Assembly: GCA_963674945.2 (NCBI GenBank)
Contig: CAXXWQ010000004.1
Location: forward strand, 672,001-736,000
Direction: 5' to 3'
Source of the DNA: an uncultured Desulfosarcina sp.
GTDB lineage: Bacteria > Desulfobacterota > Desulfobacteria > Desulfobacterales > Desulfosarcinaceae
Length of the DNA stretch: 64,000 nt
Part shown: piece by piece, positions 6,027 to 32,654 of the stretch
Layout of the letters: each line of letters opens with the position of its first letter
Numbering within the stretch: position 1 is the stretch's first letter
Made by a program: the position numbers and the translations under genes
Notes under the pieces: generated by a model
What the model was told of the DNA's origin: nothing
What the model saw: the letters and a program-made list of their open reading frames with translations, nothing else
Database searches by the model: none

Positions 6027-6911
6027 TTACACATATTGTTCTTTGAGAAGTTCTCCTGATTTGTAGGAGCTTCGAACAAAGGGCGCCGATGCGATGGCAC
6101 GGAATCCCATTTTTTTGCCTTCGGCTTCCAGTTCTTGGAATTCCTCCGGGGGAATGAACCTTACGACCGGGGCATGATTTTCCGATGGACGCAGATATTG
6201 ACCGATGGTGAGAAAATCACAGTCGACGCGCCGTAGATCTTCCATTACGGCAAGAAGCTCCTGCCTGGTTTCACCCAGCCCGACCATCAGCCCTGACTTG
6301 GTGATCACCTCTTTTTCCATCTGCTTGACATCGGAAAGGATTGTGAGAGATCGCCGGTAGTTGGCCTTTGGTCGCACTTCCTGATACAGACGGGGTATGG
6401 TCTCCAGGTTGTGGTTGAAAACATCCGGCTTTTCTCCAGCTACCATTTCCACGGATTCTTTGGACCCTTGAAAATCCGGTACCAGCACTTCGACGGTTAT
6501 CTTTTTTCCGATTTCGCGAATGGCGCGGATGGTCCGGACAAAGTGATCCGCCCCGCCATCCGGCAAATCATCCCTTGTCACGGATGTGACCACCACATGG
6601 GCCAGCCCCAACTCATACGATGCCGTTGCGATCCGCTCCGGTTCATCCGGGTCCAGGAGCCCGGGACATCCGCCCTCTACCGCACAGAACCGGCAGTTCC
6701 GGGTGCAGACGTCGCCCATGATCATGAAGGTGGCCGTTCTCTTGGAAAAACACTCACTTTGATTGGGGCAAAGGGCGCTCTGGCACACGGTGTGAAGTTT
6801 AAGCCGCGAAAGGGTCCGGCGCACCTCATTAAAATGCTTGCCCTGGCAGATTGGTCTGACCAGCCAGCCCGGCAATCGTTGCGATTGATCTTGTAACGTA
6901 TCTCGATCCAT
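6027..6911 (-). CDS. lipA: Lipoyl synthase
   Basis: CQSALCPNQSEC (CX4CX5C), CTRNCRFC (CX3CX2C), VRSSY motifs. Confidence 0.97.
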   Translation of the reverse strand: MDRDTLQDQSQRLPGWLVRPICQGKHFNEVRRTLSRLKLHTVCQSALCPNQSECFSKRTATFMIMGDVCTRNCRFCAVEGGCPGLLDPDEPERIATASYELGLAHVVVTSVTRDDLPDGGADHFVRTIRAIREIGKKITVEVLVPDFQGSKESVEMVAGEKPDVFNHNLETIPRLYQEVRPKANYRRSLTILSDVKQMEKEVITKSGLMVGLGETRQELLAVMEDLRRVDCDFLTIGQYLRPSENHAPVVRFIPPEEFQELEAEGKKMGFRAIASAPFVRSSYKSGELLKEQYV

Positions 6912-6913
6912 AT

Positions 6914-7735
6914 CTATCCTGCCTTTAACGGGGCAGTGGGATTGTACTTCTCTTCGAGCAATGTCCTGCTTACATCTTCCTCATATGAAGATAAGGTATC
7001 TTCGAAGAATCGAATCCCAAACGCGTCTTGAAAACCCTGGAAAAGGGCTTCTTTCATCTCTTGCCGGTCGACCTTCCTGCCTAACAATTCGGTAATGCCG
7101 GTGGCTCTTTTTCTGAATACGGCCACTGCCCTTTCCCTTCTCTTGCTGGAAGAGAAATTCAAAACGGAAAAGATAAGTGGCACATCGAGGGTGATGGGAA
7201 GCGAGCCGTGTTGCAGCAGCACATCGCCCCTTCGGTACTGTGCGCTTCCAGCCACCTTTCGGCCCCGACACGTCAGATCGCCGAAGCTGGCAGCATTAAA
7301 ACAGGCTGCCGGGGCAGAATCTTCGCGATGGGGGGCGAGGCTGACATCCAGACCCAAAATCTTGTATGCGGCGATCAGTCCCTGACTGATTGCCTTATAA
7401 GATTTTGATACGCCATAGGGGAAACCACACTTTCCGGAAGCCACGACGCTGTAAGTGACTTCATCTTTATGCAAAACAGATCGCCCACCGGTTGCCCGGC
7501 GGACGATGTCGATGCCGTTTTCAAGACATTTCTGCTCGTCGATATCCTTTTTTATATTCTGAAAGTAGCCCACTGTCAGCGCAGCGGGCTCCCACTCGTA
7601 TACCCGCAACGTCGGCGGCGTCATGTCCAGTTCATGGACGCGAAACATCGCCTCGTCGATCGCCATATTGGTGAATCCATCGTTGATTCCAGTGTCGATA
7701 AAACGCCATTTCGTCTGCAGTGCTTTTTGAACCAT
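6914..7735 (-). CDS. Lipoate-protein ligase A family / octanoyltransferase (LipM-like, single domain)
   Basis: NMAIDEA, VRRATGGRSVLH, EVTYS, KVAGSAQ, LQHGS motifs. Confidence 0.9.
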   Translation of the reverse strand: MVQKALQTKWRFIDTGINDGFTNMAIDEAMFRVHELDMTPPTLRVYEWEPAALTVGYFQNIKKDIDEQKCLENGIDIVRRATGGRSVLHKDEVTYSVVASGKCGFPYGVSKSYKAISQGLIAAYKILGLDVSLAPHREDSAPAACFNAASFGDLTCRGRKVAGSAQYRRGDVLLQHGSLPITLDVPLIFSVLNFSSSKRRERAVAVFRKRATGITELLGRKVDRQEMKEALFQGFQDAFGIRFFEDTLSSYEEDVSRTLLEEKYNPTAPLKAG

Positions 7736-7796
7736 GGTGTTATCTTCTGTGTACCAACAGGCTTTCGGGTTTCCTGTTCGCTCCTTTTGTGAAATC

Positions 7797-9182
7797 CTAC
7801 GATGTATGAATCGCCTTTCCCAAGGCGGCTTCTGCCGCTTCCATGATGCCTTCCGCCAATGTCGGGTGGGCGTGAATCGTCGCGCCGATCTGTTCGGCGG
7901 TCAGGCCCCATCTTACCGCCAGGGCCACTTCGGCGATCAGGTCTGTGGCGTGAGGGCCTAAAATCTGTGCGCCGAGAACACGTTCGGTGCCTTCCTCCAC
8001 CACCACCTGCACGAATCCCACATCCTCGCCAATGGTCAGCGCCTTTCCGCAAGCGGCAAAGGGAAATTTGCCGATCTTGACTTTCTTGCCGGCCGCTTCG
8101 GCCTTGGCCATGGTCAGGCCCACGCTGGCCACTTCCGGTGTGGTGTAGACGCAGGCCGGCACGGCGCTGTAGTCCATGGTTGACGCATGACCCGCGGCGT
8201 TTTCCGCGGCCACGATTCCCTCGTCCGAGGCCACATGGGCCAGCATGATTCCGCCCACCGCATCGCCAATGGCATAAATGCCGGAAACATTGGTTTCCAT
8301 TTTGTCGTTAACGATAATATTGCCTGCCGGGCCCATCTCGACGCCCAGCTCTTCCAGCCCCATGCCGGAGGTGCAAGGCCGCCTGCCGATGGAGACCAGC
8401 ATCTTTTCGGCAACGATTTCGTCACCGGTGCTCAAGGCGGCGGTGATTCCATCCGGGCGGTACTCTTTGATTCCTTCCACCTTGGTCTCCAGGTGGAATA
8501 CCACTCCCCTTCGTTCCAGAATTCGCTGCATCTGGTCCGCAACACTTTTCTCTTCCAGCGGCAAGGCCTGGTTCATCATCTCCACGACGGTGATTTTGGT
8601 TCCCAGGGAGCTGAAAACACAGGCGAACTCAAGGCCGATGACGCCTGCCCCGACAATGAGAAGGCTCTTGGGCGGCGCTTCGAGTTTCAGTGCCTCGTCA
8701 CTGGTGATCACCGCTTCCTGAGTATAATCGAAAAACGGGGGTTTGGCTACAACAGAACCCGTTGCGATGATGATCTTTTCGGCCTCGATCTCCTGGGTCC
8801 CTTTCTTGCCTTCCACCCTGACCCTGTTGGAATCAAGCAGTGTCGCGGTTCCTTTGATGGATTTGATCTTGTTTGCCTTGAGAAGCATCTTAATGCCCTG
8901 ACGAAGCTCGCCCACCACCTGCTTTTTGCGCTCCATCATTTGAGAAAAGTTGGGCTTGACGTCCCCGACCTCGACACCGAATTCCTTGGCGTCTCTTATG
9001 ATGTCGAGGATATGAGTGGAAGCCAACAGGCACTTGGTGGGAATACAACCACGATTCAAGCATGTACCACCCACCGCCTTTTTTTCCACCAGCGCCACAC
9101 TGGCGCCAAGTTGCGCTGCCCTGATGGCGGCTACATACCCTCCAGGGCCTCCGCCGATAACGAGTACTTGCACTTTTTCCAT
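7797..9182 (-). CDS. lpdA: Dihydrolipoamide dehydrogenase (E3/L-protein)
   Basis: GGGPGGYVAAIRAAQLG, GGTCLNRGCIPTK, HAHPTLAE motifs. Confidence 0.97.
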   Translation of the reverse strand: MEKVQVLVIGGGPGGYVAAIRAAQLGASVALVEKKAVGGTCLNRGCIPTKCLLASTHILDIIRDAKEFGVEVGDVKPNFSQMMERKKQVVGELRQGIKMLLKANKIKSIKGTATLLDSNRVRVEGKKGTQEIEAEKIIIATGSVVAKPPFFDYTQEAVITSDEALKLEAPPKSLLIVGAGVIGLEFACVFSSLGTKITVVEMMNQALPLEEKSVADQMQRILERRGVVFHLETKVEGIKEYRPDGITAALSTGDEIVAEKMLVSIGRRPCTSGMGLEELGVEMGPAGNIIVNDKMETNVSGIYAIGDAVGGIMLAHVASDEGIVAAENAAGHASTMDYSAVPACVYTTPEVASVGLTMAKAEAAGKKVKIGKFPFAACGKALTIGEDVGFVQVVVEEGTERVLGAQILGPHATDLIAEVALAVRWGLTAEQIGATIHAHPTLAEGIMEAAEAALGKAIHTS

Positions 9183-9187
9183 AAATC

Positions 9188-11023
9188 TTATCCTCTGCTA
9201 TCTTTCCAATTCGTTTCCGGAGAAAACCGGAGGGCTTGTGCAAACACTTTTGGATATCCCGGAAAACTCGTTAGTTCCACATAATTCACCCGACGGGCGA
9301 TATCCATCGACATACGGCGCTGCGACTTGGATATCAATGCCTGTTTCGCACCCACGCCTGCCGCGTTTCCCACCTGAGAATAACGGTCAAGGTCAAGCGG
9401 TGGCAGCATCCCGATACGGATCGCGCTGGCCACATCAATATAGTTGCCGAAGGCGCCGGCGATGATCACCTCCTCGACGTCTTGCCAATGGACGCCGGCT
9501 TGCTCCAGAAGGATATTCATCCCGGAACCGATGGCACCTTTGGCCAGTTGAATTTCACTCAAGTCCTTGCCGGTAAGCGTGATGTCCTTTCCGGTACCGC
9601 TTTGTTCACCACTGGCAAGGACGAACTCTTTCCCTTTTTCGGAATCACGGATACAGGGATGGGCGTTCATTCTGCCCTTGGCATTGATGATTCCCGTTTC
9701 CAACAATTGCGCTGCTGCATCGAGAATGCCCGAGCCGCACAAACCGATGGGCGGTTTGCCGTCGATGGTCTGCAAGATAACGGAATCGCCGTTGATCTTG
9801 ACCTTTTCGATGGCGCCGGCCATGGCACGCATGCCATTTTTGATATGCGCTCCCTCAAAAGCCGGTCCCGAAGCACAGGAACAGCAGCTTAGCTTCCCAT
9901 TGGCCACCAACGTGATCTCGGTGTTCGTTCCGATGTCGATGCCGATGACGGTTTTGTCGCTGTCGGCGATACCCGTGGCCAGGAGCATGGATACGTGGTC
10001 GGCACCCACGAAACCGGCGATGTTGGGCATCGTGTATACATATGCTCCGGGGGCGACGGCAAGGCCGATATCCCTGGCTTTCGTGTAAAGTGAACCTGAG
10101 GCGATGGGGGTGTACGGCGCCATGATCAACTGTTTAACGGGAAGACCGAGAAAGAGGTGATGCATGGCCGTGTTGCCCACCAGCACCACTTCCACGATAC
10201 TATCCGGGTCCTGGCCCGTATCGGCGCACGCCCCTTTGACGATCTTGTTGATGCCTTCCACCACTACCTTGCGCAGTGTATCCCCATCATTTTCGATGGC
10301 ATAGGAGATACGGCTCACGATATCTTCGCCGTAGGCGATCTGGGGGTTCATCACACCCTTGGCCGTCAGGACTTCTCCCGTCTCCAGGTCGGTCAGGTAC
10401 GCGGCAATGGAGGTCGTTCCCAAATCCACGGCAAGCCCAAGCACCCGATCATCGGCTTTTCCTGCGGAAACCACCTCGTTTCCATGCAGACCGATTTTTG
10501 CATGCCACTCATTGTCCCGCAGGATCGTTGACAATCGACGTTGTGCATAAAGATCTAAACGGATATCTTTTTTGTCGCAATGCGCAGCCAGATAGTCGGC
10601 GATTCTGAGTTGATCCGATCGGTTGTCGTCCTTTCCCGGGCGCGACAGTTGGATATCAACGATCTCGACAACCGGATCGTTCAGAGTACTCTTTTCATCA
10701 CCGACAAGATGTACCCGTTGGGAATCTTCAAGCGACTCCAACGGAACTTCGACCTTGACGTCTCCGTATATCCTGGTCAGGCACGCAAGCCGATATCCTT
10801 GACCGATCTCTTCACCGCTCAAAGACTTCTTTTCTCTTTCGTCCGGGGGCGACACTTCGCCGGACAAGATGCGAACTTTGCATTTGCCGCAAGTCCCTTT
10901 GCCGCCGCAAAGGGACGCCAGGCCTATGCCATAGTCTCGAGCCGCCTGAAATATCGTCGTCTCGTAGTCGGCACTGATCCGCCTGCCGATTGGCTGTAAA
11001 TCGATTCTGCACTTTTCATACAT
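9188..11023 (-). CDS. ATP-dependent reductive activator of corrinoid proteins (RACo/AcsV type; 2Fe-2S plus ASKHA domains)
   Basis: CGGKGTCGKC..RLAC ferredoxin domain, VDLGTT, NPQIAYGED, DIGTNTE, ASGPAFEG, GLCGSG motifs. Confidence 0.93.
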   Translation of the reverse strand: MYEKCRIDLQPIGRRISADYETTIFQAARDYGIGLASLCGGKGTCGKCKVRILSGEVSPPDEREKKSLSGEEIGQGYRLACLTRIYGDVKVEVPLESLEDSQRVHLVGDEKSTLNDPVVEIVDIQLSRPGKDDNRSDQLRIADYLAAHCDKKDIRLDLYAQRRLSTILRDNEWHAKIGLHGNEVVSAGKADDRVLGLAVDLGTTSIAAYLTDLETGEVLTAKGVMNPQIAYGEDIVSRISYAIENDGDTLRKVVVEGINKIVKGACADTGQDPDSIVEVVLVGNTAMHHLFLGLPVKQLIMAPYTPIASGSLYTKARDIGLAVAPGAYVYTMPNIAGFVGADHVSMLLATGIADSDKTVIGIDIGTNTEITLVANGKLSCCSCASGPAFEGAHIKNGMRAMAGAIEKVKINGDSVILQTIDGKPPIGLCGSGILDAAAQLLETGIINAKGRMNAHPCIRDSEKGKEFVLASGEQSGTGKDITLTGKDLSEIQLAKGAIGSGMNILLEQAGVHWQDVEEVIIAGAFGNYIDVASAIRIGMLPPLDLDRYSQVGNAAGVGAKQALISKSQRRMSMDIARRVNYVELTSFPGYPKVFAQALRFSPETNWKDSRG

Positions 11024-11162
11024 TGTCAGGTTCCATACTTTGTCATGTTTTTATCGAAAACAAAACGAACGTAAGTTTCGCATCATACGCTGCATCCAAT
11101 ATCCCGTAAATAGCTCAGGTTCACTTTCACACAAAAAAAAGGAATAAAAACGACAATAATTT

Positions 11163-12062
11163 TTAGAAAATCTTAAACAGCGGGTGATCCGGACCGGGTC
11201 GCAGCCCCATGTTCATTCCGCCGTAGGCCAGCATGGCATCCACCGCCCCTGCCGCCGGATAAAACCATTTTGCGTTTCGGGTCGGACCGTAAAAGATGAA
11301 GCTGCCCCCCCAGCAAAGCGGCAATGCGTAAACAACGGATGCGGTGGCTTCGAAGGCCGGTGTGCCGCGGTCACGCAGTTTCTTCCACAGATAAATGGCG
11401 TTCGATGGTGCACAGCCCCACGGCAAACCAAGCTCATTTTTCACCAGCTGGGCGGCCTGGGTGGCCCAACCGACGCTGGGGATATCCAGTATGCCAAGGT
11501 CGATCAGAAAGTTTTCCAGCCCGGCTTTCTTCGCCGCGGGATACATGTTCTCCTTGAGCAGTTTGAACCTGGCTTTCGGCTTGATCGCCTTCGTGGTCAG
11601 GGGAAGAATCACCACGCTCTTGATACCGCATTCGGCGATACACTCCATTTCATCTTCTTTATAGTGCCCCTCCATGGAATTGTAGATCAGACGGGGGATA
11701 AGCTCGCTTCCGGCAAAATGCCGGATGGCCTCCATCCGTGCCTTGGGAAGCGCAGAATCCACCAGGATGGGGGAGGTGGTATTGGCCGCCACCCACTCGA
11801 TATAGTTGATCAATGCCTCACCGGTATCTCCGATGACATCGATGATGCGCGGATTGCCGGTACTCAGCGACAATTCTTCTTCTTTGTCCAGCAATGCCTT
11901 GGCTTTGTCCTTATCGAAGATTCCTTTATCGGTATCCTTGACGATCTTGTGACCGCGGAAGAACATGCTGCCGATCATGACGGAAGGGTTCTCTCCGGGC
12001 TTGCCGCCGACTTTGACGCCGGCGATATCGAATACTTTCTGTTCCGTAGCGAATTCAAACAT
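11163..12062 (-). CDS. MtrH/MtgA-family methylcorrinoid:pterin (THF) methyltransferase
   Basis: N-terminus MFEF..EQKVFDIAGVKVGGKPGENP...GSMF..GH, plus YNS, GCAPSN and FYGP, as in the MtrH family. Confidence 0.9.
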   Translation of the reverse strand: MFEFATEQKVFDIAGVKVGGKPGENPSVMIGSMFFRGHKIVKDTDKGIFDKDKAKALLDKEEELSLSTGNPRIIDVIGDTGEALINYIEWVAANTTSPILVDSALPKARMEAIRHFAGSELIPRLIYNSMEGHYKEDEMECIAECGIKSVVILPLTTKAIKPKARFKLLKENMYPAAKKAGLENFLIDLGILDIPSVGWATQAAQLVKNELGLPWGCAPSNAIYLWKKLRDRGTPAFEATASVVYALPLCWGGSFIFYGPTRNAKWFYPAAGAVDAMLAYGGMNMGLRPGPDHPLFKIF

Positions 12063-12112
12063 GTAATGGTAACCCCTTTTCTTTATAATTCTCCGAATCG
12101 GTAATGGCCGAC

Positions 12113-12583
12113 CTAATCATCATCGTCCTCGTCTTCATCCATCAATGGCACATTTTCTTCTATCATCTCGTTGATCCATGCCTTGGTATCCTCATCCGCC
12201 CCCTTCTTCAGTGCCTTTACTTCACTGTCATCGGCGGTTTCAACTTCCATCACCCAGCCGTTGCCATACGGATCCATCTGGATGGGATTGGCGTTTCCCT
12301 TGGTAAGGGGCGGATTGATTGCAGCTACGGTCCCACTTACGGGGGCGATGATCTCCCAGACACCCTTGCTGGTTTCCACATGCCCGACTGGCTTCCCCTT
12401 GGTGATTTGCGCACCCTCTTTGGCAACGATCTTGACATGCGCCAATTTTTTTACCGCTTTGACACCAAGGTCTGATATGCCGATTTGAACCTTGTTTCCA
12501 CCCAGGTCCTTGACCCAGATAAACTCTTCCGAATAATATATGTCCTCGGGGAATTTGAGTTCCTTGCCATACATGTTCTTCAT
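12113..12583 (-). CDS. Lipoyl-carrier protein (GcvH-like) 1
   Basis: IGISD, VETSK (lipoyl-Lys), APVSG, DPYGNGW; acidic C-terminal tail. Confidence 0.92.
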   Translation of the reverse strand: MKNMYGKELKFPEDIYYSEEFIWVKDLGGNKVQIGISDLGVKAVKKLAHVKIVAKEGAQITKGKPVGHVETSKGVWEIIAPVSGTVAAINPPLTKGNANPIQMDPYGNGWVMEVETADDSEVKALKKGADEDTKAWINEMIEENVPLMDEDEDDDD

Positions 12584-12631
12584 CTGAATTTTTCTCCTTA
12601 ATTATCTAATTATTTTTATTGATGTTATCTA

Positions 12632-12985
12632 TCATTCAGGTGGTTCGATAACCGGTATTAATACCAGGGCAAGGCCGTCTAATGCCTTACTTGGTACCAT
12701 CGTTCCCTCGGCCTTTGCCTGCGACGCATTAATATCACCATTAAGTATTCCGAGGAGTATGTCGCTATTCGCTTCGATAACACTGGTAGCGGCTTCTTCA
12801 TCTATTTTCTCTTCAAGGCTTTCCACGGTGCCGTCCGGGGCCATCTGCATGAACCAGCCCGTGTTCAGGTCAGGCACTTTGAAAAGAATGCTTCCACCCC
12901 AGTCGTCCACTACGTCCGGTCCGATATCATTGAGCCTCTCAACCGCTTGGTCCAATCGTTTCTGCAATGCTTCCTTGTCTGCCAT
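12632..12985 (-). CDS. SCP2 (sterol-carrier)-like lipid-binding domain protein
   Basis: 117 aa. The ATSVIEANSDILLGILNGDINASQAKAEG segment matches the SCP2 C-terminal pattern. Confidence 0.65.
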   Translation of the reverse strand: MADKEALQKRLDQAVERLNDIGPDVVDDWGGSILFKVPDLNTGWFMQMAPDGTVESLEEKIDEEAATSVIEANSDILLGILNGDINASQAKAEGTMVPSKALDGLALVLIPVIEPPE

Positions 12986-13004
12986 TTCACTCTCCTTCCA
13001 GCTT

Positions 13005-14222
13005 TCATTTAAGTTTGCCGTGGTTTCTGGCCGCCGATACGGCAGCAGAAAAATTCTCCGGTGGGGTTAAGTAGTCAACAGCTGCAATTCCGATGGAAAA
13101 TTTATTGTACGACTTTCCATAGTTGCACAGTTTTTCTACCTCTTCTTCAATTACCGAGGCTGGCCCGTTGGAAAGAATCGCATCGGATAGTGCACAGCAG
13201 CAGTATACATCATTTTCCCGGGAGCAATCGACTGCTTTTCTATAGTCCATTTCGGCGCAGAACCATCCTTGTAAACTGCCGGGTCCAACCGCCCTTTGTG
13301 CACGCATCTCCGGAAACCAATCAAGAGCTCCTTCATACGTCATTGCGTACCAACACGGTAATTTTGATCCAAGCACTTTTCCTAATCTCTCGTAATAACT
13401 AAGTATCCATTCATTTCCCTTTAGTGGGGCAAATCCGATTTGGCTGCATAGGATCAGGCAGTCCGCACCTGCCTCAATCGCGGCCAGACCCGTCTTTATC
13501 GTCCATTCTGTGGCCAGATTCATACTACGTTGGCATAATTCGGAGTCCTTGCGCAAAGCCCTCATATATCCGGTCCATCCCATCATGAACATACCGACGG
13601 TTCCCAAGGGGTCGTTGCCAATACATACCGACAAAGGCATGATTTTGTCGAGTTCTTGGTCTACCAATAGGCGCTTGATTTCTCGGCAAGCCCAGAGATA
13701 ACCGGTGTATAGGCCCGTATGACAGGGATCGGGAATATCGAACCCTTCCAGATCCGCAAGTGACTTGATTGGAAACCCCTTGACCTGAGCCGGATTGCCG
13801 TAATCCACCATCTGTGCATCCGCTCCCCAAATTTCCTGCGTATAGCTGATGGGGTAAAGGATGGGAAGATCGAGTCCATACTTTGCTACCGTGGCCAGAT
13901 GAGCCTTGACCAACAGTTTCGGATCTCTACAAACATCTCCGGGTTTCCAGCGCTGTCCATGCGGGTCCAACGTACGAACAGCATATGGATTAAAGTAGTA
14001 GGACTCGAGAAACAGCCGATCTTTTTCCCTGCCTTTCAATGTGGCATGCAGTCTCTCAAAAGAAGTAAGCGTATCTCCCGAGTCTTCGATATTGCGATGA
14101 ATTTGCTGGCAGTACCCTCTCAGTTCTCGTTGTTCCGCCTCTGACCATGAAAAATCCAGCTCATCCAGCGGTATACCATACCAATATGGGGCGCCTGCCA
14201 GCGTTCCATGTTTTAGCGTCAA
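13005..14222 (-). CDS. URO-D/MtaA-fold methyltransferase paralogue C (Cys form)
   Basis: Aligns with the other paralogues (APYWYGIPL, ERL, NPYAVR, YTGYLWACRE, DYLTP). Start inferred at TTG 14222 (405 aa) because the ORF-track start at 14357 overlaps the upstream gene. Confidence 0.85.
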   Translation of the reverse strand: MTLKHGTLAGAPYWYGIPLDELDFSWSEAEQRELRGYCQQIHRNIEDSGDTLTSFERLHATLKGREKDRLFLESYYFNPYAVRTLDPHGQRWKPGDVCRDPKLLVKAHLATVAKYGLDLPILYPISYTQEIWGADAQMVDYGNPAQVKGFPIKSLADLEGFDIPDPCHTGLYTGYLWACREIKRLLVDQELDKIMPLSVCIGNDPLGTVGMFMMGWTGYMRALRKDSELCQRSMNLATEWTIKTGLAAIEAGADCLILCSQIGFAPLKGNEWILSYYERLGKVLGSKLPCWYAMTYEGALDWFPEMRAQRAVGPGSLQGWFCAEMDYRKAVDCSRENDVYCCCALSDAILSNGPASVIEEEVEKLCNYGKSYNKFSIGIAAVDYLTPPENFSAAVSAARNHGKLK

Positions 14223-14247
14223 ACCGTACGAAGTGTCTTTCCGGTTA

Positions 14248-14937
14248 CTATTTGTTTCTCTCGATCCACCGGGCCATCTTGCCGTCCAAGATCGCCTTGA
14301 CCTTTTCCAGTGCATCGAAGGCACTCTCGCCAAAGGTATCGGCGCCGACTTCGTCACACCACTCAGGCGTCATGCCCCAGCCGCCGGTGATAAAGATCAC
14401 GTCGTCCCTGACGCCGGCTTCGACCATGGCCTTGTGGATGACACCGCAATACGGCGTAACCGGTCCGATGATGGCAGAGGCGCCCACGATATCGGGCTTG
14501 TACTTCTTGATCGCTGCAACAAAATTATCGGCCGACACGTTCTCTCCGATGTCGATGGCCTTGATGCCTGCACCGGAAAAGAAGGCGGAGACGATTCTTT
14601 TGCCGACGTTGTGAAGATCACCTTCCACTGTGCCGATGATCATCACCTTATCCTCCGGCTTCCGATTCATGATGGAGGCTTCGACATCCGCTGTCGGCAG
14701 CAACTTCTCCATGGCGTCGTTCATGATCTGTCCCGAGATCATCAGGTCGCTCATGAACCGGTCATTGGCCTCGTACTCATCGCCAATGATGGTCAAGCCG
14801 GGACTCAACCCCTTAACAATGACGTCCAGGGCAGGAATTTTGGCATCCATGCATTCCTGAACCAACTGGGCGACCAAATCATCATCCAGATCGATAATCG
14901 CCTCTTTTAATTTTTCCAGTATTTCGTCGTTCGCCAT
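14248..14937 (-). CDS. Methyltransferase cognate corrinoid protein (MtaC-like) 2
   Basis: Cap domain plus GTVEGDLHNVGK (DxHxxG), VGASA, TGG. Confidence 0.93.
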   Translation of the reverse strand: MANDEILEKLKEAIIDLDDDLVAQLVQECMDAKIPALDVIVKGLSPGLTIIGDEYEANDRFMSDLMISGQIMNDAMEKLLPTADVEASIMNRKPEDKVMIIGTVEGDLHNVGKRIVSAFFSGAGIKAIDIGENVSADNFVAAIKKYKPDIVGASAIIGPVTPYCGVIHKAMVEAGVRDDVIFITGGWGMTPEWCDEVGADTFGESAFDALEKVKAILDGKMARWIERNK

Positions 14938-14994
14938 TTGGACCAGCCTCCTTTACTTGCACGAAAAAGTTTATGTGCCAATTGAACCCATTAC

Positions 14995-16248
14995 CTACTC
15001 ATATCTACCGTATTTTTTAAGCGCGGCGACTCCGATATCAATGTTCTCTGCAGTCGTCCAGTATGTCGGTTTAAATGACGGACCGAACTTGGGCTTGTTC
15101 TTATGGCGCATCACCTGCGTCTTTATCGCTTCTTCGATCTCGCTCGGGGAGCCGAACTCGATGATGTGGTCGTCGATGGTGTAGCTCATGTACAGTTCAT
15201 GATCATGGTGCCAGTCCGCAGCATAATCCAGGTCCACTGCGCCGCTTCCGCCGGTTCCGCCGTTGAAGGTCTTTCCGATCGGTCCTAAGCCCCCATGCTC
15301 ATACATCACTTCAAACCACTCCTGTGCCTTGCCCAGGTACGCATATCCATAGCCCATGGAAAGTTCTTTGTTCAATTTGTCCTTACTGTACTGACAGATG
15401 GTTTCGCCAACGATTCTGAAGTGATCAGCAATCCAGATGTTTTTGTCGTTTCCCAACGGGAAACCGCCATCCTGACTTCACATCGTTATCCCATCGGGTT
15501 GGGCCTCCTCTATCATCGCCTTGCCGAAGCTGCAAAGCCATTGTACGGCGATTTCGCTGCACGCCTTGACAAGGTCCGGTTTCTTGCGAAGACCGATACT
15601 GAACTCGGTCCAGCCCATCATCCCCATCATCACCATCAGTGGTGGTCCGGGGCAAATCGATGTCCATACCGGAATGGGAAGCTTGTATTTCTCAACGATC
15701 CGCCTGTATTCCCGGCAAGCCCAAAGATAACCCGGATACAGCCCGTCTTTCCGGGCATCGGGCAGCGGCATGCCTTCCAGGTCTTCCATGCTCTGGATGG
15801 GAGGTTTGCCTTTGATAATCGGGTTGCCGTACTCGATCATCGATGACAGGCCGCCCCACATATCCTCGCCGTAATTGATGTTGTGGATGCAGCTGTAATC
15901 GAGACCGAACCGTGCCATCATCGACAAGTGGGCCTTTACATACAGCTTGGGAAATTGGTACACGTCGATCGGCTTGTAGGCATCGGCGGAGTGATCCAGC
16001 ATCTTCACCGTATATGGGTTGTTATGCGGTATTCCCATGAACATACGGTCTTTGTCCTTGCCCCACATGGCAGCCTGAAAGCGCTCCAGCGGGGTCATGC
16101 CCCCCTCTTCCTCGATATTCTTGAGGATCTTCTCACAAATGCGCTCTATTTCCCGTGTCTCTTCGGGAGACCACTCAAAATCAAGTTTATCGAGCGGTGT
16201 GTTGTACCAGTAAGGCGCATTTTCAAGTGGCTGTCTTCCTTTAAACAT
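14995..16248 (-). CDS. Selenocysteine-containing URO-D/MtaA-fold methyltransferase (417 aa, Sec257), copy 1
   Basis: ORFs 15478-16248 and 14995-15456 are in frame and separated only by the TGA at 15478-15480. The read-through sequence PDGITM-U-SQDGGFP aligns with PDGLYM-C-SFMGSFP and ADCLIL-C-SQIGFAP. A SECIS-like hairpin follows. Confidence 0.88.
15430..15477 (-). promoter_or_regulatory. Bacterial SECIS-like element, copy 1
   Basis: mRNA UGA-AGUCAGGAUG-GCG-GUUUCCC-GUU-GGGAAAC-GACAAAAA-CAUCUGGAUU: a 7-bp upper stem with a GUU loop beginning 21 nt after the UGA, plus a lower stem. Confidence 0.8.
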
Positions 16249-16295
16249 AGCCAGTTGCCTCCTTGTGTACTACCTGTTTCTTAAATTACCGTGCC

Positions 16296-16378
16296 GGCAA
16301 AACCACGAAACCGATCGCGTGAAATAGCCATTTTCGCTCTATTTACCCCCTCCCCGATTCGGTTTCGTGGCTGATGCC
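16296..16378 (-). promoter_or_regulatory. Large intergenic stem-loop upstream of the Sec gene (also at 19755-19837)
   Basis: CCACGAAACCGA (16303-16314) and TCGGTTTCGTGG (16359-16370) form a perfect 12-bp inverted repeat with an inner AAATAG/CTATTT helix. Confidence 0.6.
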
Positions 16379-16416
16379 ACACAGAGCAAATAATCAAGGC
16401 TGCCAGTGTAACCCTT

Positions 16417-17067
16417 CTACCCCCTGGCGGCTACGATCGCCTTGACTTTCTCGATGGCTTCATTGGCGGTGTCGCCATAGGCATCGGCGCAAACCTTGTC
16501 GCACCACTCCTGCGTCATGCCCCAGCCACCGATGATGTATATCACCTGGTCCCTGATGCCCGCTTCCACCAGCGCATCATGAATCACCTTGCAGTACGGC
16601 TTCTGGGGGCCTAAAATCGCAGAAGCGCCAACGACCTTGGCATTGTACTCCTTGGCCGCCGCGACAAAGGCATCCGCCGTCTGGTTCTCACCGATGTCGA
16701 TCACATTGTAACCGGCCGCGGTAAACACCGAGGCCACGACACGCTTGCCCACGCAGTGCTCGTCGCCTTCCACCGTGCCGATCACCATGTTCTGGCCCAC
16801 ACCCGTGGATCCTTTTTCCATCACCGGCTTCAACCTGGTGATCACATCGTTTAACAGCTCGCCGGCCAGAACCAGGTCGCTGGTGAATCGCGTATGGGCA
16901 TCGAAGCCCTCACCGATGATGGTCAGACCCGGTTGAAGCCCTTCGATGATGATCTCCATGGGATCCATGCCCGCCTCCAACGCTTCGTCGACCAGATCCA
17001 TTACATCGTCGTCTTCGATCTCAACGGTGGCTTCCGTTAATTTCTTAAGGATTTCCTCTTTAGACAT
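16417..17067 (-). CDS. Methyltransferase cognate corrinoid protein 1, copy 1
   Basis: GTVEGDEHCVGK (DxHxxG), VGASA, IGGW. Confidence 0.93.
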   Translation of the reverse strand: MSKEEILKKLTEATVEIEDDDVMDLVDEALEAGMDPMEIIIEGLQPGLTIIGEGFDAHTRFTSDLVLAGELLNDVITRLKPVMEKGSTGVGQNMVIGTVEGDEHCVGKRVVASVFTAAGYNVIDIGENQTADAFVAAAKEYNAKVVGASAILGPQKPYCKVIHDALVEAGIRDQVIYIIGGWGMTQEWCDKVCADAYGDTANEAIEKVKAIVAARG

Positions 17068-17109
17068 TCGCTCTTTTCTCCTTACTATTGGGTATAGACT
17101 TGAGAATGG

Positions 17110-18357
17110 TTAGAACCTTGCCATTTTCTTGGTCATATCAAACAGCTTGTCCACATACTCCATGGGAGTCCAGTAGTCGAGAACACCGAGGGCCTGGAAG
17201 TGCTTGGGATATTTCTTGGCTTCGGCAACGCGCACTTTCAGTTCCGCTTCCACGGCGTCAAAATCGCCATCCAGAACGATATGGTCATCCACACTGCACC
17301 CGCAGTACAAATCCTTTTCCCTGGCATAGGCATGGATAAAGGCGGGATCCATCTCAGGGCCGACCCACCAGCCGTCGAAACTGCCCGGACCGACAGCGCC
17401 ATGGGGATAGTAATGCTCCTGCCAGTGTTCCCATCCGTTTGCGCCCAGGGTATGCCACATGGGAATATCCTTGCCCAGATGAGACTTGATCGTCTTTCCC
17501 ACGTCCGCATACACATCCATGATGAACGTATTGTCCAGTTTTTTCGTCTTCGGAGGAAATGATCCCATGAAAGAGCACATGTACAATCCATCCGGGCCGG
17601 TCTCCTTGCACGCCTTGCCGAATGCCTTCTGGAACTCCGCCGCCTTCCACATGCACGCCTGGAACAGCTCGGGATTTTTCTTCATCATCACCGTGCCGGG
17701 ACCAAAACCGGTCATGCCCAAAAACATGGTGCCCAAAGGATCTCCGCAGAACGACAGCTCCACAGGCAACTTATCGGCAACACCGTATCTTTTCATGATC
17801 GTTTTTATCTCTTTGGCCGCCCAGAGGTATCCGGGATACAGGCTGTGCTTCTTCGGATCGGCCGGCAATACGCTCTCCAAATCCTCCATCGTCTTGATCG
17901 GCGGCTCGCCCACCATCTGCGGGGTCCCGTAGTCGATCATCCGCCCGTTGCCGCCCCAGCACTCTTCCGTATAGTGGATCACGTAAATGTTGATGATATC
18001 CAGCTTGAAACGCGCGGCCATGGCCAGATGACCCATGATGTGAAGCTTGGGCCGCTGATATAAGTCACCGGGCTTTATGGCGTCCGCCCAGGAATCAAGA
18101 CAGCGAACGGCATACGGGACATTGTACTTGCATTCGATGTGAAGACGGTCCTTGTCTTTCTTCTCGAAGGTAGCCCGAAATCGCTCCATCGGCGTCATCT
18201 CTTCCTCTTCACAGTTCTCGCCGATCTTTTCGCACAACCGCTTGAGGATCAGTTCCTCCTCCACACTCCACTCAAAATGCTGATCCTCCAGCGGTACGCC
18301 GTACCAGTCGGATGGAGCATTTTCCATGTGTCCAATTTTTACCTGTGGTTCCGCCAT
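17110..18357 (-). CDS. URO-D/MtaA-fold methyltransferase paralogue A (Cys form), copy 1
   Basis: MTPMERF, DR, PPIKTMEDLE, LDYWTP pattern; next to a corrinoid protein gene; RBS AGGAGG. Confidence 0.88.
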   Translation of the reverse strand: MAEPQVKIGHMENAPSDWYGVPLEDQHFEWSVEEELILKRLCEKIGENCEEEEMTPMERFRATFEKKDKDRLHIECKYNVPYAVRCLDSWADAIKPGDLYQRPKLHIMGHLAMAARFKLDIINIYVIHYTEECWGGNGRMIDYGTPQMVGEPPIKTMEDLESVLPADPKKHSLYPGYLWAAKEIKTIMKRYGVADKLPVELSFCGDPLGTMFLGMTGFGPGTVMMKKNPELFQACMWKAAEFQKAFGKACKETGPDGLYMCSFMGSFPPKTKKLDNTFIMDVYADVGKTIKSHLGKDIPMWHTLGANGWEHWQEHYYPHGAVGPGSFDGWWVGPEMDPAFIHAYAREKDLYCGCSVDDHIVLDGDFDAVEAELKVRVAEAKKYPKHFQALGVLDYWTPMEYVDKLFDMTKKMARF

Positions 18358-18453
18358 TATGAGTTCCTCCTATTTTTAGGTGATCGTATCTCAGCCTACT
18401 TCCTATATCGTTTATGCAGTTGTATGGCATAGGGTCAATGCAGAACCCATTAC

Positions 18454-19707
18454 CTACTCATATCTACCGTATTTTTTAAGCGCGGCGACTCCGATATCAA
18501 TGTTCTCTGCAGTCGTCCAGTATGTCGGTTTAAATGACGGACCGAACTTGGGCTTGTTCTTATGGCGCATCACCTGCGTCTTTATCGCTTCTTCGATCTC
18601 GCTCGGGGAGCCGAACTCGATGATGTGGTCGTCGATGGTGTAGCTCATGTACAGTTCATGATCATGGTGCCAGTCCGCAGCATAATCCAGGTCCACTGCG
18701 CCGCTTCCGCCGGTTCCGCCGTTGAAGGTCTTTCCGATCGGTCCTAAGCCCCCATGCTCATACATCACTTCAAACCACTCCTGTGCCTTGCCCAGGTACG
18801 CATATCCATAGCCCATGGAAAGTTCTTTGTTCAATTTGTCCTTACTGTACTGACAGATGGTTTCGCCAACGATTCTGAAGTGATCAGCAATCCAGATGTT
18901 TTTGTCGTTTCCCAACGGGAAACCGCCATCCTGACTTCACATCGTTATCCCATCGGGTTGGGCCTCCTCTATCATCGCCTTGCCGAAGCTGCAAAGCCAT
19001 TGTACGGCGATTTCGCTGCACGCCTTGACAAGGTCCGGTTTCTTGCGAAGACCGATACTGAACTCGGTCCAGCCCATCATCCCCATCATCACCATCAGTG
19101 GTGGTCCGGGGCAAATCGATGTCCATACCGGAATGGGAAGCTTGTATTTCTCAACGATCCGCCTGTATTCCCGGCAAGCCCAAAGATAACCCGGATACAG
19201 CCCGTCTTTCCGGGCATCGGGCAGCGGCATGCCTTCCAGGTCTTCCATGCTCTGGATGGGAGGTTTGCCTTTGATAATCGGGTTGCCGTACTCGATCATC
19301 GATGACAGGCCGCCCCACATATCCTCGCCGTAATTGATGTTGTGGATGCAGCTGTAATCGAGACCGAACCGTGCCATCATCGACAAGTGGGCCTTTACAT
19401 ACAGCTTGGGAAATTGGTACACGTCGATCGGCTTGTAGGCATCGGCGGAGTGATCCAGCATCTTCACCGTATATGGGTTGTTATGCGGTATTCCCATGAA
19501 CATACGGTCTTTGTCCTTGCCCCACATGGCAGCCTGAAAGCGCTCCAGCGGGGTCATGCCCCCCTCTTCCTCGATATTCTTGAGGATCTTCTCACAAATG
19601 CGCTCTATTTCCCGTGTCTCTTCGGGAGACCACTCAAAATCAAGTTTATCGAGCGGTGTGTTGTACCAGTAAGGCGCATTTTCAAGTGGCTGTCTTCCTT
19701 TAAACAT
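18454..19707 (-). CDS. Selenocysteine-containing URO-D/MtaA-fold methyltransferase, copy 2
   Basis: Identical to copy 1; in-frame TGA at 18937-18939. Confidence 0.88.
18889..18936 (-). promoter_or_regulatory. Bacterial SECIS-like element, copy 2
   Basis: Identical to 15430-15477. Confidence 0.8.
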
Positions 19708-19875
19708 AGCCAGTTGCCTCCTTGTGTACTACCTGTTTCTTAAATTACCGTGCCGGCAAAACCACGAAACCGATCGCGTGAAATAGCCATTTTCGCTCTA
19801 TTTACCCCCTCCCCGATTCGGTTTCGTGGCTGATGCCACACAGAGCAAATAATCAAGGCTGCCAGTGTAACCCTT

Positions 19876-20526
19876 CTACCCCCTGGCGGCTACGATCGCC
19901 TTGACTTTCTCGATGGCTTCATTGGCGGTGTCGCCATAGGCATCGGCGCAAACCTTGTCGCACCACTCCTGCGTCATGCCCCAGCCACCGATGATGTATA
20001 TCACCTGGTCCCTGATGCCCGCTTCCACCAGCGCATCATGAATCACCTTGCAGTACGGCTTCTGGGGGCCTAAAATCGCAGAAGCGCCAACGACCTTGGC
20101 ATTGTACTCCTTGGCCGCCGCGACAAAGGCATCCGCCGTCTGGTTCTCACCGATGTCGATCACATTGTAACCGGCCGCGGTAAACACCGAGGCCACGACA
20201 CGCTTGCCCACGCAGTGCTCGTCGCCTTCCACCGTGCCGATCACCATGTTCTGGCCCACACCCGTGGATCCTTTTTCCATCACCGGCTTCAACCTGGTGA
20301 TCACATCGTTTAACAGCTCGCCGGCCAGAACCAGGTCGCTGGTGAATCGCGTATGGGCATCGAAGCCCTCACCGATGATGGTCAGACCCGGTTGAAGCCC
20401 TTCGATGATGATCTCCATGGGATCCATGCCCGCCTCCAACGCTTCGTCGACCAGATCCATTACATCGTCGTCTTCGATCTCAACGGTGGCTTCCGTTAAT
20501 TTCTTAAGGATTTCCTCTTTAGACAT
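19876..20526 (-). CDS. Methyltransferase cognate corrinoid protein 1, copy 2
   Basis: Identical to 16417-17067. Confidence 0.93.
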   Translation of the reverse strand: MSKEEILKKLTEATVEIEDDDVMDLVDEALEAGMDPMEIIIEGLQPGLTIIGEGFDAHTRFTSDLVLAGELLNDVITRLKPVMEKGSTGVGQNMVIGTVEGDEHCVGKRVVASVFTAAGYNVIDIGENQTADAFVAAAKEYNAKVVGASAILGPQKPYCKVIHDALVEAGIRDQVIYIIGGWGMTQEWCDKVCADAYGDTANEAIEKVKAIVAARG

Positions 20527-20568
20527 TCGCTCTTTTCTCCTTACTATTGGGTATAGACTTGAGAATGG

Positions 20569-21816
20569 TTAGAACCTTGCCATTTTCTTGGTCATATCAA
20601 ACAGCTTGTCCACATACTCCATGGGAGTCCAGTAGTCGAGAACACCGAGGGCCTGGAAGTGCTTGGGATATTTCTTGGCTTCGGCAACGCGCACTTTCAG
20701 TTCCGCTTCCACGGCGTCAAAATCGCCATCCAGAACGATATGGTCATCCACACTGCACCCGCAGTACAAATCCTTTTCCCTGGCATAGGCATGGATAAAG
20801 GCGGGATCCATCTCAGGGCCGACCCACCAGCCGTCGAAACTGCCCGGACCGACAGCGCCATGGGGATAGTAATGCTCCTGCCAGTGTTCCCATCCGTTTG
20901 CGCCCAGGGTATGCCACATGGGAATATCCTTGCCCAGATGAGACTTGATCGTCTTTCCCACGTCCGCATACACATCCATGATGAACGTATTGTCCAGTTT
21001 TTTCGTCTTCGGAGGAAATGATCCCATGAAAGAGCACATGTACAATCCATCCGGGCCGGTCTCCTTGCACGCCTTGCCGAATGCCTTCTGGAACTCCGCC
21101 GCCTTCCACATGCACGCCTGGAACAGCTCGGGATTTTTCTTCATCATCACCGTGCCGGGACCAAAACCGGTCATGCCCAAAAACATGGTGCCCAAAGGAT
21201 CTCCGCAGAACGACAGCTCCACAGGCAACTTATCGGCAACACCGTATCTTTTCATGATCGTTTTTATCTCTTTGGCCGCCCAGAGGTATCCGGGATACAG
21301 GCTGTGCTTCTTCGGATCGGCCGGCAATACGCTCTCCAAATCCTCCATCGTCTTGATCGGCGGCTCGCCCACCATCTGCGGGGTCCCGTAGTCGATCATC
21401 CGCCCGTTGCCGCCCCAGCACTCTTCCGTATAGTGGATCACGTAAATGTTGATGATATCCAGCTTGAAACGCGCGGCCATGGCCAGATGACCCATGATGT
21501 GAAGCTTGGGCCGCTGATATAAGTCACCGGGCTTTATGGCGTCCGCCCAGGAATCAAGACAGCGAACGGCATACGGGACATTGTACTTGCATTCGATGTG
21601 AAGACGGTCCTTGTCTTTCTTCTCGAAGGTAGCCCGAAATCGCTCCATCGGCGTCATCTCTTCCTCTTCACAGTTCTCGCCGATCTTTTCGCACAACCGC
21701 TTGAGGATCAGTTCCTCCTCCACACTCCACTCAAAATGCTGATCCTCCAGCGGTACGCCGTACCAGTCGGATGGAGCATTTTCCATGTGTCCAATTTTTA
21801 CCTGTGGTTCCGCCAT
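20569..21816 (-). CDS. URO-D/MtaA-fold methyltransferase paralogue A, copy 2 (first gene of the operon)
   Basis: Identical to 17110-18357. Confidence 0.88.
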   Translation of the reverse strand: MAEPQVKIGHMENAPSDWYGVPLEDQHFEWSVEEELILKRLCEKIGENCEEEEMTPMERFRATFEKKDKDRLHIECKYNVPYAVRCLDSWADAIKPGDLYQRPKLHIMGHLAMAARFKLDIINIYVIHYTEECWGGNGRMIDYGTPQMVGEPPIKTMEDLESVLPADPKKHSLYPGYLWAAKEIKTIMKRYGVADKLPVELSFCGDPLGTMFLGMTGFGPGTVMMKKNPELFQACMWKAAEFQKAFGKACKETGPDGLYMCSFMGSFPPKTKKLDNTFIMDVYADVGKTIKSHLGKDIPMWHTLGANGWEHWQEHYYPHGAVGPGSFDGWWVGPEMDPAFIHAYAREKDLYCGCSVDDHIVLDGDFDAVEAELKVRVAEAKKYPKHFQALGVLDYWTPMEYVDKLFDMTKKMARF

Positions 21817-22368: not shown

Positions 22369-22570
22369 GCTAGATTTTTAAAAACTACGATTCGAAGTAG
22401 TTGGAACTTTTTACCGTGCCATCTATATCGATAATGGGCAAAGGAAATTCCAAAGACTCCTACTTCATTTTCACCAACAGCCAACAAAAGGAACATCCTA
22501 CCTTAATATAATACGTCAACCCATTTAACCGAAGCATATGAATAGGGTGAACATTAGGGGTGAATCAACT

Positions 22571-25197: not shown

Positions 25198-25219
25198 GGG
25201 TTATCCAATAAAGCGAGAG

Positions 25220-26428: not shown

Positions 26429-26445
26429 TGTAAGGAGAATGAAAT

Positions 26446-28704: not shown

Positions 28705-28715
28705 GAGAGACAGAC

Positions 28716-29888: not shown

Positions 29889-29907
29889 GTGCCACAAAGG
29901 AGATACC

Positions 29908-31584: not shown

Positions 31585-31596
31585 TAGGTATAACCG

Positions 31597-32631: not shown

Positions 32632-32654
32632 AAGGCAATCATAAGAGGCAATCA

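Follow-up and report, generated by a model that had tools for sequence, protein, structure and literature searches.

Does protein-bound lipoate take part in corrinoid-dependent methyl transfer? The question is raised by a locus of an uncultured Desulfosarcina sp. in which methyltransferase, corrinoid protein and lipoate genes stand together in one operon, within a stretch of 64,000 nucleotides (the window in what follows). The initial annotation of this DNA proposed that protein-bound dihydrolipoamide may replace coenzyme M (CoM) as the thiol carrier of methyl groups. The best explanation, which we hold only tentatively, is a different one: the operon would strip methyl groups from organic substrates and deliver them to tetrahydrofolate, for use in the Wood-Ljungdahl pathway, and the lipoyl carrier and its dihydrolipoamide dehydrogenase (E3) would act as redox partner of a Cys or Sec residue of the methyltransferases (MTs).

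Architecture of the Operon

All the operon genes are on the minus strand (6027-21816), with intergenic gaps of 2-168 bp (Table 1). Every member of the gene set first described is present: three MT types, two corrinoid proteins, an MtrH/MtgA-type enzyme, the activator RACo, the carrier, E3, LplA/LipM and LipA. MT1, MT2 and MT3 are three distinct proteins of the URO-D/MtaA fold (pairwise identity 37-40%), and the corrinoid proteins Cor1 and Cor2 are 51% identical. The count of distinct types was thus correct, but not that of genes. Positions 14984-18374 recur base for base at 18443-21833, an exact tandem duplication with a period of 3,459 bp, so that the operon holds five MT and three corrinoid genes. 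An assembly artefact is unlikely to lie behind the duplication because the junction is unique and the repeated part has about two to three times the depth of single-copy MT3 in public contigs, whose runs may be the source sample; no listed contig piece spans the repeat.

A second lipoyl module (flavoenzyme, CCG, GcvH2, LipS1-S2) is found on the plus strand at 23761-35304. The MarR gene that precedes it is likewise placed between MT and FAD-oxidase genes in the genome G061. The earlier reading had overlooked this module as well as the duplication, the in-frame TGA with its hairpin, the loss of the zinc motif and the SCP2 gene.

Table 1. Features of the operon and of its surroundings in the window.
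Feature	Position	Strand	Basis
FadL-type outer-membrane channel, 518 bp downstream of operon; membership uncertain	4258..5508	-	
Lipoyl synthase LipA	6027..6911	-	TIGR00510 367 bits, cut-off 310
LplA/LipM-type ligase or octanoyltransferase	6914..7735	-	
Dihydrolipoamide dehydrogenase E3	7797..9182	-	TIGR01350 575 bits, cut-off 409
RACo corrinoid activator	9188..11023	-	
MtgA/MtrH-type methylcorrinoid:tetrahydrofolate methyltransferase (predicted)	11163..12062	-	
GcvH1 lipoyl carrier, Lys73	12113..12583	-	
SCP2-like lipid-binding protein	12632..12985	-	homologues, weak Pfam match
MT3, about 405 aa, likely TTG start (450-aa ORF would overlap Cor2)	13005..14222	-	
Cor2 corrinoid protein	14248..14937	-	
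MT2 copy B, 417 aa if codon 257 is read as Sec (U257), barrel of the URO-D/MtaA type	14995..16248	-	
SECIS-like hairpin, 7 bp, GUU loop, begins 14 nt after TGA	15448..15464	-	MT2 copy B
Cor1 copy B, DxHxxG motif	16417..17067	-	
MT1 copy B	17110..18357	-	
Duplication junction, unique 68 bp	18375..18442		
MT2 copy A, in-frame TGA257, predicted selenocysteine	18454..19707	-	
Cor1 copy A, corrinoid protein, identical to copy B	19876..20526	-	
MT1 copy A, URO-D/MtaA-fold methyltransferase, Cys261	20569..21816	-	profile match and alignment
MarR regulator	22538..23119	+	
First half of second lipoyl module: FAD-linked oxidoreductase, CCG (HdrD/TfrB-like) protein, GcvH2	23761..26892	+	
Second FAD-oxidoreductase/CCG pair and OsmC-like protein	27244..30405	+	
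LipS2-like, LipS1, lipoate ligase and GGR-family (LipT-like) genes	30451..35304	+	compared with accessible part of PMC10332631

The Methyltransferases and Their Cys/Sec Residue

The URO-D-type barrel of the MTs is confirmed by PF01208 matches and by a predicted model (pLDDT 95) with Z scores of 31-32 to URO-D and MtaA. Comparison with the MtaA structure 4ay7 gave Z 31.4 and an rmsd of 2.6 over 326 aligned residues (18% identity), and the family also matches the MtaA profile (E 1.1e-5). MtaA relatives methylate or demethylate thiols (PMC7374477, accessible part). Both this chemistry and the shared fold, which at Z 31.4 is tied with URO-D, favour lipoate as a CoM surrogate: the MT would methylate dihydrolipoyl-GcvH1, and S-methyl-lipoyl would relay methyl or alkyl groups between the Cor2 and Cor1 systems and folate. 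This reading is possible but doubtful. In the MtaA/CmuA models TIGR01463/PRK06252, MT3 reaches 21-24 bits against cut-offs of 235/244, and MT1 and the MT2 fragments give no match. The zinc motif of MtaA-type CoM methyltransferases is HxC...C, its positions being taken here from the 4ay7 alignment. HxC near strand 6 is found in just 4 of 94 alignment rows and the last Cys of MtaA aligns to Gly, which counts against a CoM-like role; as judged from the alignment, the MT family has lost the MtaA zinc motif. An atypical zinc site, which would again support such a role, is possible with C204 (61/94 rows), D206 (71/94), H302 (46/94) and D394 (76/94) as candidate ligands.

A Cys occupies a near-invariant column of the alignment (93/94 rows), at the C-terminus of barrel strand 253-257 in the predicted model. 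In MT2, codon 257 is an in-frame TGA that divides the reading frame (15478-15480, minus strand, in copy B), and TGA stands in the Cys column in four distinct paralogues of the host genome (G000) and in other genomes. MT1 was not found in the 60 close relatives examined. Among 115 database matches, 15 end at precisely the Cys/TGA residue. A triloop hairpin accompanies nine of ten distinct TGA loci, with a variant form at the tenth. It is 92.9% paired, with double-sided changes in four of its seven pairs, a count of double-changed pairs reached by 201 of 500 shuffles; the folding of the 71-nt stretch 3' of the TGA does not stand out from that of shuffled sequences (z -1.25). The host genome contains selA and tRNA-Sec. 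A broken gene as the origin of the TGA was considered and rejected because the same column is hit at many loci, with a covarying hairpin. The MT2 clade is likely an uncatalogued selenoprotein family, which annotation pipelines truncate at 256 aa; URO-D, MtaA and uroporphyrinogen decarboxylase have no occurrence in the main text of a 2026 selenoproteome review (PMC13188914).

The Cys/Sec residue suggests a redox role. Alternatively, it may bind zinc in an atypical site, and this would favour ordinary MtaA-like thiol chemistry. We know of no URO-D-family enzyme with a redox Cys or Sec.

A Dedicated Lipoyl Carrier

The lipoyl-Lys motif of GcvH1 is intact, with K73 invariant (76/76), and its score in the canonical GcvH model TIGR00527 is 68 bits against a cut-off of 116. 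GcvH1 forms a clade apart from other H proteins in a quick tree (SH-aLRT 100), and full-length members score at least 199 bits versus at most 92 for other H proteins. In the order, GcvH1 is present in 4 of 401 genomes, all of them among the six that carry an MT; in the Chloroflexota class it is present in 1 of 401, one of the two genomes with an MT. Across these 802 sampled genomes, it was found only in those bearing an MT.

Could the lipoate genes simply serve glycine cleavage or 2-oxoacid dehydrogenases elsewhere, and be placed here by co-regulation or chance? The initial annotation had noted no GcvP, GcvT or 2-oxoacid E1/E2 gene in the window. This holds for the scanned part of the window ORFs, but gcvT-H-P and two E2 genes are encoded elsewhere in the genome, in line with such a service, as is the finding of no E3 homologue on the gcv-cluster contig. 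Nonetheless, the gcv cluster (gcvT-H-P, contig C2) includes a separate H protein (TIGR00527 166 bits, cut-off 116) and a LipA of its own, three further E3 homologues exist in the host genome besides that of the operon, and the separate GcvH1 clade was not found in sampled genomes without an MT. On these grounds, a glycine-cleavage role is rejected as highly improbable; the fear, voiced at the outset, that the carrier serves a GcvP/T system elsewhere was not borne out.

Linkage Across Genomes

The linkage of MT, corrinoid, GcvH and lipoate genes, named in the initial annotation among the things to check, is conserved across phyla, so that this check did not refute the proposal. GcvH1 adjoins MT, Cor1 and/or MtgA in G061, G062, G063, G378, G256, G129 and G399, and likewise in the metagenome loci L030 and L036/L039. 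The module (a rare MT family, corrinoid, MtgA-type enzyme, RACo and GcvH1) is kept in this sulfate reducer, in a second genus of the order, in Chloroflexota and in Actinomycetota, the genomes concerned representing about five independent lineages. Against the best explanation, the G062 cluster is without E3, and five MT matches but no GcvH1 were found in G064, although this genome has only 1.2 Mb.

GcvH1 is co-duplicated with MT-corrinoid-MtgA units. For instance, the host genome has four copies of GcvH1 and three of MtgA, against a single operon-type E3 and a single Lpl, with one GcvH1 copy accompanied by SCP2 alone, and G378 has three Cor1-GcvH1 units. The smallest recurring unit, MT-Cor1-GcvH1-MtgA, is a further point for lipoate as a CoM surrogate.

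This pattern bears also on another explanation, namely a conventional demethylase of the Mto/Cmu type in which the lipoyl carrier serves solely to pass electrons from NADH, by way of E3, to RACo or the neighbouring flavin/CCG enzymes and never contacts the MT. GcvH1 does adjoin RACo, or lies near it, in G000, G062, G063 and L039, and MT1, corrinoid, MtrH-like protein and activase make a complete system in Methermicoccus (PMC8630106, accessible part). However, the MT-Cor1-MtgA units with which GcvH1 is copied lack RACo and E3, the Wood-Ljungdahl RACo and the MttB system of the host genome have no adjoining lipoate genes, and the Cys/Sec is left unexplained. We consider this explanation rather unlikely.

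Proposed Mechanism

The MtgA-type protein matches PF02007 (239 bits) and Desulfitobacterium hafniense MtgA (E 1e-103), and scores 386 bits in the MtgA glycine betaine equivalog NF047990, whose cut-off is 550. Its pterin-site residues D75, D102 and N221 are invariant in 77 alignment rows; mutations at the positions of D102 and N221 are present in entries 6sjo and 6sjp. Judging from its sequence, the enzyme can discharge the corrinoid straight to folate, and this speaks against a CoM-like relay. Moreover, transfer from S-methyl to folate (N5-methyl) is uphill by roughly 20-30 kJ/mol, so an S-methyl carrier would be a trap; the relay is energetically awkward in this sense. A pure relay also needs no E3 turnover, and no consumer such as MCR was found, the MCR alpha subunit being present in 0 of 10 genomes; an MCR-type methane step is rejected on the same count. 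The host genome has dsrA and Wood-Ljungdahl genes, and ACS is present in all five hosts tested.

In the preferred mechanism, an MT paralogue would transfer CH3 from its substrate to cob(I)amide on Cor1 or Cor2, MtgA would pass it to tetrahydrofolate for oxidation or acetyl-CoA synthesis, and RACo would re-reduce Co(II). The Cys/Sec at the barrel mouth would be left bonded to, or oxidised by, the heteroatom part of the substrate after turnover, a sulfur leaving group being the simplest case. Dihydrolipoyl-GcvH1 would then free the residue and E3 would recycle GcvH1 with NAD(H), while a second lipoyl route, made up of GcvH2 and the CCG proteins, may carry electrons in parallel to substrate-specific flavoenzymes. 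A precedent is provided by the lipoyl proteins and E3 that reduce Cys enzymes (Ohr/OsmC, AhpD). A substrate family of lipophilic methylated organics is hinted at by the large number of paralogues and by neighbours such as SCP2, FadL, DUF1329 and flavoenzyme genes. Steroid C-demethylation of the Emt/Abe type (PMC11912376, accessible part) was set aside and is a lead only: an MtmB-like pair stands beside MT1 only in L023, and the host genome gave no tblastn match.

A broader version of the CoM proposal takes in the second module as well. TfrA/TfrB- and HdrD-type proteins use the CoM and CoB thiols in methanogens, and the TfrA/TfrB- and HdrD-like proteins that adjoin GcvH2 and the LipS genes lend the CoM proposal some support. 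Protein-bound lipoate might then be a bacterial stand-in for both coenzymes, GcvH1 carrying an S-methyl group that a Sec/Cys B12 methyltransferase installs or removes and GcvH2 being the dithiol substrate of Tfr/Hdr-like enzymes. This view is speculative and to be doubted; if it held, bacteria would have, with no need of free CoM, a thiol circuit for C1 and redox transfer like that of methanogens.

Comparison with Known Systems

To our knowledge, the known roles of lipoate are few: 2-oxoacid and acetoin dehydrogenases, glycine cleavage and, in the accessible part of the literature, sHdr sulfur oxidation. Under any of the three leading readings, which taken jointly are quite probable, a lipoyl carrier devoted to B12 methyl transfer would add a role to this list. 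Our literature search, to which most subscription journals were closed, found no such lipoyl-corrinoid methyltransferase system. The system is soluble and small enough for in vitro reconstitution, and may explain the anaerobic demethylation, in sediments, of substrates that are hard to attack, for example methyl sulfides or lipophilic natural products.

By gene content, the operon resembles MtoABCD of Methermicoccus shengliensis, where several paralogues of MT1 share a cluster with a corrinoid protein, an MtrH-like pterin methyltransferase and a RACo-type activase, but neither a lipoyl carrier nor E3 nor Sec is mentioned in the accessible text (PMC8630106). In CmuA/CmuB and the mec dichloromethane cassette (PMC9768040) there are again several MTs of the URO-D/MtaA family, with a corrinoid protein and an MTII of 299 aa that feeds folate; the operon MTs differ in falling far below the MtaA/CmuA cut-off and in carrying Cys/Sec, and "lipo" does not occur in the accessible part of that paper. 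The CoM methyltransferases MtaA, MtsA, MtsD/F/H and MtpA have the same fold, whereas the operon MTs lack HxC...C, show 18% identity, are extended N-terminally by about 50 aa and belong to hosts in which MCR was not found (0/10). Type 1 mlp clusters (PMC10418091), with a proposed methyl-S/Se role, likewise combine three URO-D-superfamily MTs, a corrinoid protein and RACo. In the accessible text, which has no occurrence of "lipo" or "GcvH", Mlps exceed 25% identity to CoM methyltransferases and the clusters described have no folate methyltransferase; here the identity is 18% (structural, to 4ay7) and MtgA is present.

On the lipoate side, the H-protein fold, the lipoyl Lys and E3 are shared with the glycine cleavage system, but the P and T partners are absent from the cluster and the carrier belongs to a separate clade. 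A parallel in organization is sHdr-LbpA with sLpl(AB)-LipS1/S2 (PMC10332631; bioRxiv 2026.10.01.755906; both in their accessible parts), in which a non-canonical pathway is served by an H-like lipoyl protein that stands alone and has lipoylation genes of its own; LipS1/S2 are also present in this window. LbpA serves sulfur oxidation and has conserved cysteines and basic surfaces, whereas GcvH1 has no conserved Cys, is acidic by sequence (net charge -2 to -14) and accompanies methyltransferases.

Organization of the Operon

The host, an uncultured Desulfosarcina sp., has a genome of 7.08 Mb in four contigs (98.7% complete, 5.7% contamination). The first three genes of its operon, separated like the rest by gaps of 2–168 bp, form an exact tandem duplicate of 3,391 identical bases, with a period of 3,459 and a unique 68-bp junction. 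Depth in the public contigs (run X1; the runs possibly represent the source sample) is ~29–38 over the repeated genes vs 12 over MT3, and a third MT1–Cor1 copy on contig C3 bears on how this depth is read. The initial annotation had counted three distinct methyltransferases and two distinct corrinoid proteins among the operon products, and comparison of the protein sequences agrees with it. The genes neighboring such loci are variable (KstD-like, OYE, CrtO-like, AOR, SCP2, and DUF1329) and point to no named substrate.

Position and gene content of the loci. MT, URO-D/MtaA-fold methyltransferase; Cor, corrinoid protein; GcvH1 and GcvH2, lipoyl carriers of the operon and of the second lipoyl module; MtgA, folate methyltransferase type; RACo, corrinoid activator; E3, dihydrolipoamide dehydrogenase; Lpl, LplA/LipM-type ligase; LipA, lipoyl synthase; CCG, HdrD/TfrB-like protein; G000, host; L, locus.
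Genome or locus	Position (strand)	Genes and remarks
Window	21816–6027 (-)	MT1-Cor1-MT2-MT1-Cor1-MT2-Cor2-MT3-SCP2-GcvH1-MtgA-RACo-E3-Lpl-LipA
Window	23761–35304 (+)	Second lipoyl module, divergent from the operon: FAD-oxidoreductase, CCG, GcvH2, second FAD-oxidoreductase/CCG pair; also OsmC, LipS2-like, LipS1, ligase, GGR-family protein
G000:C4	660583–668187	97.9% identical 5.1-kb copy of second module, just upstream of window; then identical RACo and lipA fragments
Window	36890–43666 (+)	DUF1302/DUF1329/YCF48/MMPL cluster; DUF1329 recurrent near MT loci in G000, G378
Window	819–1358, 2617–3123	DUF2284 and OsmC-like genes, recurrent near MT loci (also L014, L077)
Window	55614–60034	Unassigned glycyl radical enzyme, activase
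L084	1123–13213	Glycyl radical enzyme paralogue just past window, amid KstD-like, OYE, HpaB-like, two divergent PanB-like genes
G000:C3	572702–572793, 722697–722794	tRNA-Sec calls
L062 (genus g11)	16272–20000	Sister URO-D clade; also L063, L073
L076 (G399)	9167–10399	TGA in another MT clade
L047 (G064)	1232–10392	TfrA/TfrB-like genes; also L057 (G061)
L023 (G063)	174–5249	~5 kb upstream of MT1: flavoprotein, corrinoid protein, two MtmB-like genes; Emt/Abe-like arrangement
G062 (Chloroflexota)		MT1-Cor1-MT-Cor-MT3-MtgA-GcvH1-RACo-LipA-FAD2
G061		Cor2-SCP2-GcvH1-MtgA-MT; MT3-GcvH1-MtgA
G063 (Actinomycetota)		Cor1-MtgA-GcvH1-RACo
L039/L036 (metagenome)		MT-Cor-GcvH1-x-RACo-E3-Lpl-LipA-AAA-x-MT3; AAA/VWA-type pair after or inside lipoate genes in L036, L077
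G378		MT-Cor1-GcvH1-MtgA (twice); Cor1-GcvH1 (once)
G256		GcvH1 (contig-end fragment)-MtgA-Lpl-LipA-MT-E3-RACo

A Methyltransferase Family with a Cys or Predicted Sec Site

The AlphaFold model of MT2, made from a 93-row alignment (pLDDT 95.4), matches URO-D and Methanosarcina mazei MtaA equally (Z 31.4–31.8, structure search of 1,000 chains), with an rmsd of 2.6 over 326 residues and 18% identity to 4ay7. The family is small and discrete: a database search yielded 115 clusters at 90% identity, and among 1.84 billion there were 42 representatives with E no higher than 1e-30; the host has 15 full-length copies. The family has lost the zinc motif of MtaA: 4 of 94 rows show HxC near strand 6, and Gly stands where MtaA has its last Cys. 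What 93 of the 94 rows do share is a single Cys at the C-terminal end of a barrel strand. A divergent sister clade (~25% identity) in genus g11 is accompanied by a corrinoid protein, ETF, a membrane CCG protein, and an AcsE-like gene.

The MT2 codon at this near-invariant Cys column is TGA, as in four distinct host paralogues, two in G061, one in G399, and several metagenome loci; 15/115 database proteins end exactly at this residue. A stem with a 3-nt loop lies at ~+14 to +30 in nine of ten distinct TGA loci, the tenth having a variant. Pairing in this stem reaches 92.9%, and 4/7 pairs show double-sided changes; with relatedness among loci uncontrolled, no shuffle of 500 reached its pairing or covariation score, while 201 reached the double-changed-pair count. 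A longer 71-nt fold was not significant, and the hairpin of the G399 locus is weaker and different. The host also has selA and two tRNA-Sec calls. Taken together, the TGA position, the stop pattern, the hairpin, and the selenium genes make a predicted selenocysteine likely. The placing of the G399 TGA in a different clade suggests that selenocysteine may have been gained or lost more than once. This family goes unnamed in the main text of a selenoproteome review from 2026 (PMC13188914).

A Dedicated Lipoyl Carrier

Close homologues of GcvH1 number 78 (at least 48% identity); all 76 that were aligned share Lys73, Thr71, Trp76, and Trp136. A quick tree separates GcvH1 from both canonical GcvH and GcvH2, as a clade of its own (12 rows, SH-aLRT 100). 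The initial annotation had considered that the carrier might serve a GcvP/T system encoded elsewhere; in the host, the gcvT-H-P cluster comes with a separate H protein and LipA, and a role of GcvH1 in glycine cleavage is highly improbable. Of the four GcvH1 copies in the host, three adjoin MtgA together with an MT-Cor1 pair. E3 and Lpl of the operon type, by contrast, occur only once each, and a second, identical RACo gene lacks an accompanying GcvH1.

The proposed linkage of methyltransferase, corrinoid, and carrier genes across genomes held: GcvH1 lies with Cor, MT, and/or MtgA in several genomes; the G062 cluster lacks E3. Among 401 genomes of the host's order, six have MT and four of these a full-length GcvH1; the others are G256 (contig-end fragments) and G221 (split MT only, no GcvH1). 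In 401 genomes of G064's class, MT occurs in two and GcvH1 in one, the exception being the 1.2-Mb G064. No sampled genome of either set without MT contained GcvH1; the co-occurrence represents about five independent lineages.

The Folate End

The MtgA-type protein matches Desulfitobacterium hafniense MtgA (E 1e-103) and retains the Asp and Asn mutated in deposited variants. The host has dsrA and a Wood–Ljungdahl cluster; ACS is present in 5/5 hosts tested, dsrA exceeds its cut-off in 6/10, and MCR was found in none of ten genomes. By this homology and gene content, a putative methyl flow between corrinoid and THF is the best-supported step.

Role of the Lipoyl Arm

Our tentative preference is a redox role, in which the dihydrolipoyl carrier, with E3, would reset the methyltransferase Cys/Sec or take off a heteroatom fragment; this fits E3, the Cys/Sec site, and the co-duplication. 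The original proposal, that lipoyl sulfur carries the methyl group in place of coenzyme M, seems rather unlikely. S-methyl to folate transfer is uphill by ~20–30 kJ/mol, so such a relay would face an uphill step ahead of folate, and it would leave E3 without turnover. Its strongest argument comes from gene neighborhoods. The MtaA, Tfr, and HdrD families use CoM or CoB thiols in methanogens, and here they repeatedly adjoin bacterial lipoyl carriers: MtaA-fold proteins beside carriers, and Tfr/HdrD-like genes by GcvH2/LipS sets. Sets resembling the second lipoyl module occur in G378 (L071), G061, and G064, in the last two with TfrA/TfrB-like (thiol:fumarate reductase) genes adjoining GcvH2 or LipS1/S2 genes; a lipoyl-dependent Tfr is possible in these Chloroflexota. 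An atypical zinc site using the Cys/Sec is conceivable and would also shift weight toward methyl carriage. Less probable than carriage, and again favored less than the redox role, is a supply of electrons by the lipoyl arm to RACo or flavoenzymes. The weight left belongs to unforeseen explanations.

Comparison with Known Systems

The methyl-transfer core is of a known kind. A targeted literature search, covering few subscription journals, found no account in which such a core is joined by a dedicated lipoyl carrier and has Cys or Sec in the active site, and the mlp clusters, in the available text of PMC10418091, differ from this operon. In the available accounts, the full demethylase of Methermicoccus consists of a methyltransferase, a corrinoid protein, an MtrH-like protein, and an activase (PMC8630106); the mec cassette resembles it in makeup (PMC9768040). 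Since such sets of components suffice there, the lipoyl arm is something extra, whose presence calls for a separate explanation.
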